DNA of 64,000 bases from Octopus vulgaris (taxonomy: Eukaryota): positions 54,746,001-54,810,000 of the forward strand of contig OX597822.1 in NCBI GenBank assembly GCA_951406725.2, read 5' to 3'. Below the pieces are notes generated by a model, which ran no database searches, was not told the origin of the DNA, and saw only the letters and a program-made list of their open reading frames with translations. Numbering within the stretch: the first letter of the stretch is position 1; each line of letters opens with the position of its first letter. Both the position numbers and the translations under genes were made by a program. This document shows positions 46,403 to 57,010 of this stretch, one piece after another.

Positions 46403-47650
46403 ATAGATAGATAGATAGATAATAGCTACAGGAATACCTGTGTTAAGATTAAGCTGCAAGTATGGCTATGTGGTAAAGAAGATTGCTCTGTAAACATATG
46501 CTTCTGGGTTTGATCCTAGTATTTGACTTATCGTCTACTATAGCCATGTCCGGGATATGATTTTAAAGTGTACCCAATATGTGGGCCTTGTTCAGGAGTT
46601 TGGGTTCTCTTATCTGAAGTGTGTAGAATCACCTTTTAGCCACAATTGTTCTCAGGTGTTCTCTGATCCAGAGGAGTAACACCTGTCAGGTCCCAGTTAT
46701 GGGTTAATTAGCATGTTAGGGCTTACCTACTTATGCATGTGATAATTGGATTTGGTAGACTCTGTGGAAGAAACCTACATGGTTCAGCAGAGAGGAGGAC
46801 AGCTGCAGCAACACACTGTGGGGTGCAGAGAGAAAGACGAGGCAATTAAGACATTTTGGTCATCCACTGCATCTGTTTCCATCCTCAGTTGTCTTGACTT
46901 GGTTTTGCCACTGGACTGAAGATGATCACAGATGAGAGAGTGAGGTTGATGGTGTGCAACTTTTCTTCACTTTAATCAAAGTTACCATGACTAGATGGTC
47001 CTCTTTGCTCTAACAAATGAACATGCAATAGTACTATAACCATTAATCGGTTGGTGCTTTCTAAGTGAAATTTGGTAGACAGTAACTGTATAGAAGGCCG
47101 TTAAGTGTGTGTGTGTGGAAACTAGCGCTTGTAATCCCTAATGGCTGGAGGACATCCCCCACTTTTTTTTTTAACATGTAGGCGCAGGAGTGGCTGTGTG
47201 GTAAGTAGCTTGCTAACCAATCACATGCTTCCGGGTTCAGTCCCACTGCATGGCATCTTGGGCAAGTGTCTCCTGCTATAGCCTCGGGCCGACCAAAGCC
47301 TTGTGAGTGGATTTGGTAGATGGGAACTGAAAGAAGCCTGTCATATATATGTATATATATATATGTATATATAAATTAATTAATAAGGGTGAGAGAATTA
47401 GATACTAATTTAATAGTATATTTATTCCACACCAAGTGGCCTAGTGCTACGAGAAACCTGGATTATTATAATATTTTATAACATATTATAATATTTTCAC
47501 AAAATAAATATAAGAGAGTGTTCACTATATTGATCACTCTAGCACTAGTTAATCCAAGAGGTTTCAACCACGAAAAATACATGTTTCCCATGAAAGCCGG
47601 TACGACTGTTAGTTCACACGGACAGGGCAAATAAAAAATAACAAAAATAC

Positions 47651-47742
47651 AGATTATCTTGGGACAATTGTTTCGCTATTAATGAATTAAATGTAATATT
47701 ACTTACAGTAATCCATTTGTAGCTCTTCAGCCAAGGCTATCT
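47651..47742 (-). ncRNA. Type I hammerhead ribozyme, copy 1
   Basis: Minus strand reads AGATAGC-CTTGG-CTGAAGA-GCTA..41 nt..TAGC-GAAA-CAATTG-TC^-CCAAG-ATAATCT. Core complete, stems I and II pair, stem III is the palindrome ACAATTGT. Predicted cut between 47663 and 47662. Confidence 0.88.
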
Positions 47743-48185
47743 TGATGAAATCCACTCAATCACACGCCAGATTTTACCATAACGATAATTACGCGTGCGG
47801 TTCAATTGATTACATCGGACGTTATAATTCAAATGCCCCAACCAACAGCGCGCCAAACTCTCACGGAAAAACAAATACAGCATTTAGAAATAAATGCAGC
47901 ATAATTATAATTAATTAATAAGGGTGAGAGAATTAGATACTAATTTAATAGTATATTTATTCCACACCAAGTGGCCTAGTGCTACGAGAAACCTGGATTA
48001 TTATAATATTTTATAACATATTATAATATTTTCACAAAATAAATATAAGAGAGTGTTCACTATATTGATCACTCTAGCACTAGTTAATCCAAGAGGTTTC
48101 AACCACGAAAAATACATGTTTCCCATGAAAGCCGGTACGACTGTTAGTTCACACGGACAGGGCAAATAAAAAATAACAAAAATAC

Positions 48186-48277
48186 AGATTATCTTGGGAC
48201 AATTGTTTCGCTATTAATGAATTAAATGTAATATTACTTACAGTAATCCATTTGTAGCTCTTCAGCCAAGGCTATCT
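48186..48277 (-). ncRNA. Type I hammerhead ribozyme, copy 2
   Basis: Same sequence as copy 1, +535 bp. Confidence 0.88.
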
Positions 48278-48720
48278 TGATGAAATCCACTCAATCACAC
48301 GCCAGATTTTACCATAACGATAATTACGCGTGCGGTTCAATTGATTACATCGGACGTTATAATTCAAATGCCCCAACCAACAGCGCGCCAAACTCTCACG
48401 GAAAAACAAATACAGCATTTAGAAATAAATGCAGCATAATTATAATTAATTAATAAGGGTGAGAGAATTAGATACTAATTTAATAGTATATTTATTCCAC
48501 ACCAAGTGGCCTAGTGCTACGAGAAACCTGGATTATTATAATATTTTATAACATATTATAATATTTTCACAAAATAAATATAAGAGAGTGTTCACTATAT
48601 TGATCACTCTAGCACTAGTTAATCCAAGAGGTTTCAACCACGAAAAATACATGTTTCCCATGAAAGCCGGTACGACTGTTAGTTCACACGGACAGGGCAA
48701 ATAAAAAATAACAAAAATAC

Positions 48721-48812
48721 AGATTATCTTGGGACAATTGTTTCGCTATTAATGAATTAAATGTAATATTACTTACAGTAATCCATTTGTAGCTCTTCAG
48801 CCAAGGCTATCT
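48721..48812 (-). ncRNA. Type I hammerhead ribozyme, copy 3
   Basis: Same sequence as copy 1, +1070 bp. Confidence 0.88.
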
Positions 48813-49255
48813 TGATGAAATCCACTCAATCACACGCCAGATTTTACCATAACGATAATTACGCGTGCGGTTCAATTGATTACATCGGACGTTATAATTC
48901 AAATGCCCCAACCAACAGCGCGCCAAACTCTCACGGAAAAACAAATACAGCATTTAGAAATAAATGCAGCATAATTATAATTAATTAATAAGGGTGAGAG
49001 AATTAGATACTAATTTAATAGTATATTTATTCCACACCAAGTGGCCTAGTGCTACGAGAAACCTGGATTATTATAATATTTTATAACATATTATAATATT
49101 TTCACAAAATAAATATAAGAGAGTGTTCACTATATTGATCACTCTAGCACTAGTTAATCCAAGAGGTTTCAACCACGAAAAATACATGTTTCCCATGAAA
49201 GCCGGTACGACTGTTAGTTCACACGGACAGGGCAAATAAAAAATAACAAAAATAC

Positions 49256-49347
49256 AGATTATCTTGGGACAATTGTTTCGCTATTAATGAATTAAATGTA
49301 ATATTACTTACAGTAATCCATTTGTAGCTCTTCAGCCAAGGCTATCT
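49256..49347 (-). ncRNA. Type I hammerhead ribozyme, copy 4
   Basis: Same sequence as copy 1, +1605 bp. Confidence 0.88.
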
Positions 49348-49790
49348 TGATGAAATCCACTCAATCACACGCCAGATTTTACCATAACGATAATTACGCG
49401 TGCGGTTCAATTGATTACATCGGACGTTATAATTCAAATGCCCCAACCAACAGCGCGCCAAACTCTCACGGAAAAACAAATACAGCATTTAGAAATAAAT
49501 GCAGCATAATTATAATTAATTAATAAGGGTGAGAGAATTAGATACTAATTTAATAGTATATTTATTCCACACCAAGTGGCCTAGTGCTACGAGAAACCTG
49601 GATTATTATAATATTTTATAACATATTATAATATTTTCACAAAATAAATATAAGAGAGTGTTCACTATATTGATCACTCTAGCACTAGTTAATCCAAGAG
49701 GTTTCAACCACGAAAAATACATGTTTCCCATGAAAGCCGGTACGACTGTTAGTTCACACGGACAGGGCAAATAAAAAATAACAAAAATAC

Positions 49791-49882
49791 AGATTATCTT
49801 GGGACAATTGTTTCGCTATTAATGAATTAAATGTAATATTACTTACAGTAATCCATTTGTAGCTCTTCAGCCAAGGCTATCT
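49791..49882 (-). ncRNA. Type I hammerhead ribozyme, copy 5
   Basis: Same sequence as copy 1, +2140 bp. Confidence 0.88.
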
Positions 49883-50325
49883 TGATGAAATCCACTCAAT
49901 CACACGCCAGATTTTACCATAACGATAATTACGCGTGCGGTTCAATTGATTACATCGGACGTTATAATTCAAATGCCCCAACCAACAGCGCGCCAAACTC
50001 TCACGGAAAAACAAATACAGCATTTAGAAATAAATGCAGCATAATTATAATTAATTAATAAGGGTGAGAGAATTAGATACTAATTTAATAGTATATTTAT
50101 TCCACACCAAGTGGCCTAGTGCTACGAGAAACCTGGATTATTATAATATTTTATAACATATTATAATATTTTCACAAAATAAATATAAGAGAGTGTTCAC
50201 TATATTGATCACTCTAGCACTAGTTAATCCAAGAGGTTTCAACCACGAAAAATACATGTTTCCCATGAAAGCCGGTACGACTGTTAGTTCACACGGACAG
50301 GGCAAATAAAAAATAACAAAAATAC

Positions 50326-50417
50326 AGATTATCTTGGGACAATTGTTTCGCTATTAATGAATTAAATGTAATATTACTTACAGTAATCCATTTGTAGCTC
50401 TTCAGCCAAGGCTATCT
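50326..50417 (-). ncRNA. Type I hammerhead ribozyme, copy 6
   Basis: Same sequence as copy 1, +2675 bp. Confidence 0.88.
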
Positions 50418-51016
50418 TGATGAAATCCACTCAATCACACGCCAGATTTTACCATAACGATAATTACGCGTGCGGTTCAATTGATTACATCGGACGTTAT
50501 AATTCAAATGCCCCAACCAACAGCGCGCCAAACTCTCACGGAAAAACAAATACAGCATTTAGAAATAAATGCAGCATAATTATAATTAATTAATAAGGGT
50601 GAGAGAATTAGATACTAATTTAATAGTATATTTATTCCACTATATATATATATATATGTATGTGTGTATATATGTTTGTGTGTCTGTGTTTGTCCCTCTA
50701 GCATTGCATGACAACCGATGCTGGTGTGTTTACGTCCCTGTCACTTAGCAGTTCGGCAAAAGAGACCGATAGAATAAGTACTAGGCTTACAAAGAATAAG
50801 TCCCAGGGTCGATTTGCTCGACTAAAGGTGGTGCTCCCGCATGGCCACAGTCAAATGACTGAAACAAGTAAAAGCGAAAAGAGAGTAGTTACAGTATGAT
50901 ACATTTAACTGAGGTTTTATTGAATTTTTGGAAATGATGCTCTGATTAAAGAAAACACTATGTATTCTGATTATTGAAACTGCTGTGATAATTCCTGGTG
51001 TTTTGTTCTTTTTCAG

Positions 51017-51139
51017 ATGTATTGCCTTATATGGCATTTAGAACTCTGCAGTTTACTTGCTGAAGAAGAGATCCTCACATTACTTGTATCTGCAATATGT
51101 CATGATTTAGAACATTCTGGTTTTAACAATATTTATCAT
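51017..51139 (+). CDS. PDE9A: PDE9-like exon (MYCLIWHLELCSLLAEEEILTLLVSAICHDLEHSGFNNIYH)
   Basis: tttcag acceptor, GTAAGT donor, 41 codons; HDLxHxGxxNxY is the class I PDE signature. Confidence 0.97.
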
Positions 51140-52724: not shown

Positions 52725-52879
52725 GTGAATGCCCATACCATTTTGGCACGAACTTATAATGACAGGTCACCTTTGGAGAACCATCACTGTGATGTGGCGT
52801 TCCGAATATTAGAGAAAACTGACTTACTGAAGAACCTATCTCCACAACAGTACACTATTGTCCGCCAAGGTATTATTAG
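52725..52879 (+). CDS. PDE9A: PDE9-like exon (VNAHTILARTYNDRSPLENHHCDVAFRILEKTDLLKNLSPQQYTIVRQGII-R)
   Basis: cttcag acceptor, GTAAGA donor; YNDxSPLENHH motif; ends in phase 2. Confidence 0.97.
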
Positions 52880-55987: not shown

Positions 55988-57010
55988 GCTGTGAAGGTGG
56001 AAAGCCGGCAGAATTGTTAGCATGCTGGGCAATATGCTTAGCAGTATTTCTCCTGTCACTACATTCTGAGTTCAAATTCCACCGAGGGCGACTTTGCCTT
56101 TCATCCTTTTGATGGTCGATAAATTAAGTACCAGTGAAATACTGGGGTCAATGTAATCAACTAGTCCCCTCCCCAACGTTTCTGGCCTTGTGTCTATAGT
56201 AAAAAGGATTATTATTAAGGCAGCAAGCTTGGCACAATCGTTAGCACGCCAGACAAAATACTTAGCAACATTTCATCCATCTTTACATTCTGTGTTCAAA
56301 TTCTGCCACAGTTGACTTTGCCTTTCATCCTTTTGGGGTCGATAAATTAAGTACCAGTGAAACGCTGGGGTTGATGTAATCAACTAGTTCCCTCCCCCAA
56401 AAGTGCAGGCTTTGTGCCTTTAGTGGAAAGGATTATCATTATTATTATTAAGGTGGCTGAAATGGCAGGATTGTTAGTATGCTGGACAAATTGCTTAGAA
56501 GCATTTCATCTGTCTTTACGTTCTGAGTCCAAATGCTGTCAAGGTCGATTTTGCCTTTTATCCTTCCAGGGTTGAGGAAATAATTACTGGTTGAACACTG
56601 TGGTTGATGTAATTGACTTACCCAGCCCCCCAAAATCAGGCCTTGTGCCTATAATAGAAAGGATTATTATTATTATAAGGCAGTGGGCTGGCAGAATTGT
56701 TAGCACACTTGATAAAATGCTTAGTGACATTTCATGTCTTTACATCCTGAGTTCAAATCCCCCGAGATTGACTTTGCCTTTCATCCCTTCAGGGTCAATG
56801 AAATAAGTACCGGTCAAGCACTGGGTTTAAAGTAATCGACCAACCTCTACAATTGTTATATTATCAGGCAGTAAGCTGGCAGAATCGTTGAAGCATCAGA
56901 ACTATTGCATTGCAACATTTGTTCTATTAACAAATTTTGAGTTCAGATCCCATCCAGGTGAAATTTGCCCTTCATCCCTCCAGGGTTGATGAATTAAAAT
57001 ACTAGTCAAG
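55750..57010 (+). mobile_element. Head-to-tail cluster of about 6 Meta-like SINEs separated by (ATT)n
   Basis: Repeated ggcag..ctggcagaat.gttagc ... gttcaaattc ... tttgcctttcatcc units start near 55757, 55993, 56217, 56450, 56677 and 56866. Confidence 0.85.

Follow-up and report, generated by a model that had tools for sequence, protein, structure and literature searches.

Contig OX597822.1 of Octopus vulgaris (assembly GCA_951406725.2) holds, in the 64,000-nucleotide stretch analyzed here (forward strand, positions 54,746,001 to 54,810,000; hereafter the window, numbered from its first letter), a tandem array of 535-nt units, each with a hammerhead ribozyme. This array raises a question: what kind of element is it, and how did its identical units come to stand head to tail? 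A first-pass annotation, made from the sequence alone, had proposed a retrozyme with type I hammerheads and Penelope-type mobilization; genome-wide dispersal, ends in (TA)n, covariation of the ribozyme stems, and an end rule shared with Penelope-like elements (PLEs) of the Hydra clade now back that proposal. That a PLE mobilized the retrozyme is, in our judgment, very probable. With considerably more reserve, we favor the fuller account that this non-LTR retrozyme (LTR, long terminal repeat) is cut to 535-nt monomers, circularized, and copied into (TA)n by the reverse transcriptase (RT) and GIY-YIG nuclease of a Hydra-clade PLE.

The insertion occupies 47374–50640 as a single arm of 6.1 identical units, and its RNA-sense strand is the minus strand. 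As first read, six 535-bp units are followed by 57 bp: there are no differences over 47374–50583, and identity at a period of 535 spans exactly 47374–50640. The units are tandem, non-coding (33% GC) and devoid of LTRs and open reading frames (ORFs); the longest stop-free frame is 69 amino acids, and CpG is undepleted, as had been claimed (16 seen vs. 14.5 expected; the observed/expected ratio in the rest of the window is 0.23). A structure scan of the window found a type I hammerhead on the minus strand of every unit (47658–47735, 48193–48270, 48728–48805, 49263–49340, 49798–49875 and 50333–50410) and none outside the array. In copy 1, stem I (47735–47731 with 47662–47658) is followed by CUGAAGA (47730–47724), stem II (47723–47720 with 47678–47675), GAAA (47674–47671), and a stem III of 2 bp with a palindromic loop. 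The predicted cut, between 47663 and 47662, agrees with the sequence.

Is this motif maintained as a ribozyme? Folding of 47650–47745 yields stems I and II (z = -2.5; 5 of 200 shuffles were equally stable). The expectation that the stems should covary among genomic relatives was borne out for these two: in 24 distinct copies from three subfamilies, both sides had changed at five of the seven stem I pairs and two of the four stem II pairs, a score that none of 500 shuffles reached and that was abolished by sliding the partners. These sequences are interrelated, and the changes stand for a handful of events rather than 47. The distal part of stem I (AGAT/ATCT) in the initial model fared less well, with 68% of cells paired and no compensatory change, and the suggested Rfam check returned no hammerhead at the gathering score or at E ≤ 10. 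The core is intact in 246 of 256 copies, with U4C in nine. Two copies of stem III pair at -7.8 kcal/mol, and a single copy alone is unfolded; hammerheads with such a short stem III have been described as acting as dimers (PMC4209133). As a circle, the monomer is predicted to be strongly self-paired (minimum free energy -148 kcal/mol; z = -6.3 vs. 60 shuffles), and 22 of the 118 consensus pairs of the unit, including pairs outside the ribozyme, show a compensatory change. A pattern search for other hammerheads sharing stem III gave 18 matches, with no Hydra frame within 1.5 kb of them except in one known flank.

The array had been treated as a single, near-unique feature; it is rather one of hundreds of young, dispersed insertions of a family belonging to a published class. 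A search of the octopus’s own genome (973 candidates, 40 scored) gave 255 matches, with 98–100% identity among the 150 listed, and the hammerhead core pattern had 819 genomic matches (control, 0). With 34 loci for 97 matches on contig C1, the total extrapolates to about 290 insertions. Loci were fetched from the best matches (37), from the pattern list (20) and from an older subfamily (27). Three subfamilies were distinguished, at about 92–100% (A), 71–80% (B) and 66–75% (C) identity. Near-identical pieces also occur in contigs under a second organism label (X14), and the unit is found in contigs of four runs guessed to be RNA, although contigs cannot reveal strand, ends or circles. One 6.5-kb contig (C120, locus L031) consists wholly of about 12 units identical to the window haplotype and is possibly a collapsed array.

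The flanks of the window array establish how it came to be there. Both belong to one abundant repeat, whose left part and TA tract lie at 47181–47373 and whose TA tract and right part lie at 50641–50860 (both plus strand); we take this repeat to be SINE-like (SINE, short interspersed nuclear element). At other fetched loci, the two flanks lie no more than 300 nt apart in 40 match pairs, the gap between the halves being 11–79 nt among the 25 pairs listed. The target repeat is thus uninterrupted elsewhere, and the array is therefore an insertion into its TA tract. Because the insertion ends lie in (TA)n, any target-site duplication is indistinguishable.

We then compared the anatomy of the insertions; this census leaves out L031 and probably counts one insertion twice, as L041 and L042, which have a flank in common. 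The outer ends do not lie at the ribozyme cut. They fall at two fixed points, about 290 nt (A) and 160 nt (B) past it and hence about 130 nt apart, where they run into (TA)n, and subfamilies that are only 66–80% alike retain these ends. Two divergent arms are present in 34 of the 46 subfamily-A loci and pair A with B in 32 of these, the two exceptions being damaged loci. The other 12 are single-armed (seven A, five B), as is the window copy: no inverted arm was detected at its insertion, which keeps the A arm alone. Its “long” end A, at 47374–47400 (minus strand; about 289–292 nt past the cut), is joined to (TA)n and is inferred to be where reverse transcription started. The “short” site B (47498–47530, minus strand; about 157–164 nt past the cut), the second fixed end of the family, is internal here and recurs in each unit, and the 5' truncation point (50630–50640, minus strand) falls at position 233 of the unit and adjoins (TA)n. 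Arms range from about 90 to 5,266 nt. A single linear template with classical twin priming was rejected: an A arm stops close to site B in only 3 of 32 cases, the lengths of the two arms show no correlation (rho = -0.13, p = 0.49), and in 21 of 32 loci each arm is longer than one unit. An end motif, YYCTWA, was also discarded, being post hoc and failing at the long end of the Hydra-type E/F family described below.

What served as the template? Inner ends are distributed uniformly across the unit (n = 76; Kolmogorov-Smirnov p = 0.71), with only one within 15 nt of the cut, where about four were expected, and the joint across the cut site is exact in 264 of 265 cases. RT must therefore have read through the cleavage site, leaving a circle or an uncleaved multimer as template. 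Sequence variation bears on this choice. Among full units, 125 of 179 match their locus majority, units differ on average by 0.34 substitutions within loci vs. 3.8 between loci (counts that omit L042 and the 7 of 179 units with more than three differences from their majority), and 35 loci carry 26 haplotypes. At 12 of 47 loci, a private substitution, seen at no other sampled locus, has become fixed, being carried by at least 85% of the copies that cover it; in seven of the 12 it is fixed in both arms. A private variant fixed across an array requires a bottleneck of one unit, which a monomer circle supplies. A-to-I editing was dismissed as the origin of the fixed variants, of which 4 of 21 are A>G, like the singletons (3 of 20). 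From these data, a monomer circle appears reasonably likely to have been the template.

The strongest competitor, though an unlikely one, has the same element and helper copying an uncleaved, linear, multimeric transcript of an existing array, with the hammerhead serving another step. Uniform inner ends and precise joints suit it equally well, a PLE studied in vitro used mainly unprocessed RNA as its substrate (PMC11167929), and two mosaic loci (L043, L160) match a mixed source. However, a new variant cannot spread to all units of both arms unless the template passes through a single-unit bottleneck; the 12 loci above show such a variant, the 26 haplotypes in 35 loci also count against this reading, and the arms of the mosaic loci, judged by eye, differ in variant order. 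In those two arrays the variants are scattered over both arms, and most L160 units carry the U4C core change.

Clonal arrays could also arise if PLE-type insertions began short, with one or two units in each arm, and unequal crossing-over then lengthened them in place, a satellite route proposed by Li, Clavereau and Pollet (2026; bioRxiv 10.64898/2026.07.22.740005). Some variants are indeed common to adjacent units (L038, L043, L162). We nonetheless consider this route improbable for the octopus: the variation is star-like (20 true singleton substitutions listed vs. eight subset-shared cases), the youngest loci already hold up to about 10 units per arm, and the arrays of the older subfamily B contain fewer units (11 matches in 9 loci vs. 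86 in 25, both on contig C1). In contrast to that proposal, the octopus arrays look full-length at birth.

Two further explanations carry little weight. Template jumping is known for R2 RT, and an RT that jumped repeatedly from the 5' end to the 3' end of a cleaved, linear monomer would yield clonal multimers without ligation. This is very improbable, given that truncations do not pile up at the cut (1 of 76) and the junctions are not heterogeneous (264 of 265 precise). An assembly artefact, or an ordinary DNA satellite whose hammerhead arose by chance, could be argued from units of 100% identity and a contig made solely of array; either is scarcely credible in view of the distinct flanks and private haplotypes of the dispersed loci, the stem covariation, and the uninterrupted target repeat elsewhere.

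If a PLE copied the circle, which one was it? The unit itself lacks the single ORF with RT and C-terminal GIY-YIG of an autonomous Hydra PLE. The genome contains young PLE families with long open frames, namely a Neptune-like family of 781 amino acids and Hydra-type families D, E/F and G, including near-identical Hydra-type copies, and all of them insert in (TA)n. Hydra-type D and F have DKT, an RW/RxKW motif and CxCX5C; G has DKT and RW with no match to CxCX5C. These motifs fit the Hydra-clade definition, including (TA)n targeting, in section 11 of PMC8557442. A long end is paired with a short end at all loci with two scored ends in families D (9 of 9) and G (8 of 8), at spacings of about 85 and 150 nt, and the 85–190 nt range of Hydra-type spacings brackets the 130 nt of the retrozyme. 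The retrozyme, with its (TA)n target and inverted insertions of one long and one short end, thus has the features of a non-autonomous client of a Hydra PLE, and the helper probably belonged to this clade. The Neptune-like family, whose ends lie about 40 nt apart and which has no DNA similarity to the unit, was set aside as a possible but less likely helper. Hydra family D, whose stem III sequence and short end motifs are shared with the retrozyme, was rejected as its parent on the grounds of unspecific alignment scores. The first-pass annotation had suggested looking for copies attached to PLE RT and GIY-YIG frames; GIY-YIG/RT fragments near L155 and L151 proved, by position, to be separate TA insertions.

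Several points weigh against the favored account. Variants shared by subsets of units at five loci (L038, L043, L160, L162, L164) mean that one monomer circle alone is insufficient and that the process also involves template switching, conversion or a mixed source. The loci were sampled with a bias toward the youngest copies with full units. None of the 130 PLE loci sampled contains an autonomous element whose DNA resembles the unit, the sole unit matches (L222, L285) lying, by position, in flanking sequence; the end similarity to family D is weak and unspecific (z = 1.1–3.5), and a young, TA-targeting Neptune-like family is likewise active in the genome. Pseudo-LTR (pLTR) homology to an autonomous family was also absent from those 130 loci, which sample part of the Hydra families. 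Given this absence and the weak end similarity, the clade of the helper is likely, and no single family is assigned. On the RNA side, none of the sequence records holding the unit is recorded as RNA, and in the predicted circle the active hammerhead fold is rare, with stem I formed in about 7% and stem III in 0.3%. In the in vitro study in which unprocessed linear RNA dominated, hammerhead cleavage was dispensable (PMC11167929), and only one of nine Xenopus dimers was cleaved (Li et al., bioRxiv 10.64898/2026.07.22.740005).

How does the octopus family compare with described systems? It resembles the animal non-LTR retrozymes of Cervera and de la Pena 2020 (PMC7229834) in that its tandem units are non-coding, low in GC and furnished with a single type I hammerhead, and also in its short helix III with a palindromic loop, its dispersal, and its co-occurrence with PLEs. 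The remark that the unit is longer than most animal retrozymes holds for the 170–400 nt of that study, but not for the 51–972 bp of Li et al. Expression, cleavage and circles have been demonstrated for animal retrozymes, the circles in coral, mussel and axolotl (PMC7229834), whereas self-cleavage and circular RNA of the octopus family are predictions. Copying of circles into multimeric cDNA (complementary DNA) by PLEs has been proposed for animal retrozymes (PMC7229834, PMC7761336), and integration of retrozymes and PLEs as multimeric cDNA from hammerhead-made circles has been proposed since 2014–2020 (PMC4209133, PMC7229834, PMC7761336, PMC8557442). In the main text of PMC7229834, the words “inverted” and “rolling” do not occur, and we encountered no two fixed ends, inverted arms or clonality there. 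The vertebrate retrozymes of Li et al. are alike in PLE dependence and range of unit size, but 24 of 57 Xenopus families resemble known transposable elements, mostly PLE ends, whereas the octopus unit lacks pLTR homology; the supplementary tables of that preprint could hold related families.

The PLEs themselves offer closer parallels. Hydra-clade PLEs (Craig et al. 2021, PMC8557442), of which Hydra-1_Obim is listed for Octopus bimaculoides, share the (TA)n target, a canonical hammerhead, an inverted, 5'-truncated arm and two alternative ends; the octopus retrozyme differs in having no RT or nuclease frame. The PLE tail is described there as 30–40 bp, compared with 130 nt between the retrozyme ends and 85–190 nt in the Hydra families of this genome. 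The Poseidon element PAc, studied in vitro (Frangieh et al. 2024, PMC11167929), cuts both strands of AT-rich DNA and extends them, and its RT initiates at two positions within the RNA that correspond to the genomic ends, as we propose for the retrozyme. It differs in its clade, its adjacent starts, and its linear, uncleaved template. What is reported here is one more family of an already published retrozyme class, and the PLE-circle model is likewise published. We found no paper on an octopus or cephalopod retrozyme or on clonal, two-armed retrozyme insertions in the literature covered, outside of which most subscription papers fall.

We propose the following route. Read-through transcripts of arrays would self-cleave, probably as double hammerheads via the palindromic stem III, and a host ligase would circularize the 535-nt monomer. 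At a TA tract, both strands would be nicked by the PLE protein, and two cDNAs would be initiated, one at internal site A and the other at internal site B, on either a single circle or two identical ones. Each cDNA could go around its circle as many as about ten times, and the two cDNAs would then be linked head to head.

Several observations accompany these results. Whole elements of Hydra family G, 3,623 bp in length, are arrayed head to tail at L273–L274 (G000:C1:119.51–119.53 Mb) and L279; the units of the C1 tandem are mutually identical and about 1% from all other copies, being clonal like the retrozyme arrays. The E/F hammerheads (L242 and L236, 3' ends) have stem II inserts of about 90–110 nt, some with a CCGAAGA core, and in families D and F the region between RT and nuclease contains N-rich stretches. 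A Neptune-like copy (L108:6060–6115) carries, by eye, a hammerhead-like motif with UUGAUAA for CUGANGA, possibly a compensatory U3-A8 core. Inside a Hydra frame, a second retrozyme-like family (L249:2860–4200; unit of about 415 nt, different hammerhead) shares the two-ended, inverted TA insertion pattern.

In the window, an exon of a cyclic-nucleotide phosphodiesterase gene lies downstream of the array (51017–51139, plus strand; PF00233, E = 4.7e-11), with further frames that carry motifs at 52773 and 57560. No such exon was located upstream of the array, which likely sits in the intron preceding the 51017–51139 exon, with its hammerhead strand antisense to the gene. At 56007–56837 lies a diverged tandem repeat of 3.7 copies with a period of about 230. 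As regards transcription, no promoter of the small nuclear RNA (snRNA) type was found: the ATCAGT core of the U1/U2 proximal element is absent upstream of the hammerhead, and the best score was 3.9 vs. a null mean of 5.7. Retrozymes with U-snRNA promoters are those of the newt satellite 2 type. In this genome, the U1 and U2 genes (L293–L332) fall into six promoter types that are unlike one another apart from the shared ATCAGT core, located at -57 to -60. Runs of T5–T6 in the sense strand would disfavor transcription by RNA polymerase III.

What might these insertions mean? Tentatively, and at somewhat less than even confidence, we suggest that they are a direct genomic record of an animal retrozyme spreading through monomeric circular RNA, with a Hydra PLE making two rolling-circle cDNAs. 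The origin of the inverted ends and tails of PLEs is an open question (PMC4209133, PMC7229834, PMC7761336, PMC8557442). If true, the two-site rolling-circle route would also account for the way in which autonomous elements are arranged, in tandem and inverted, as in the clonal triple tandem of the 3.6-kb Hydra element. The copying of an RNA circle by a PLE has long been proposed. The octopus family is very young and has defined start sites, and it occurs alongside intact candidate helper frames; a circular and a linear template could thus be compared with a 535-nt RNA, making the family a useful test system.

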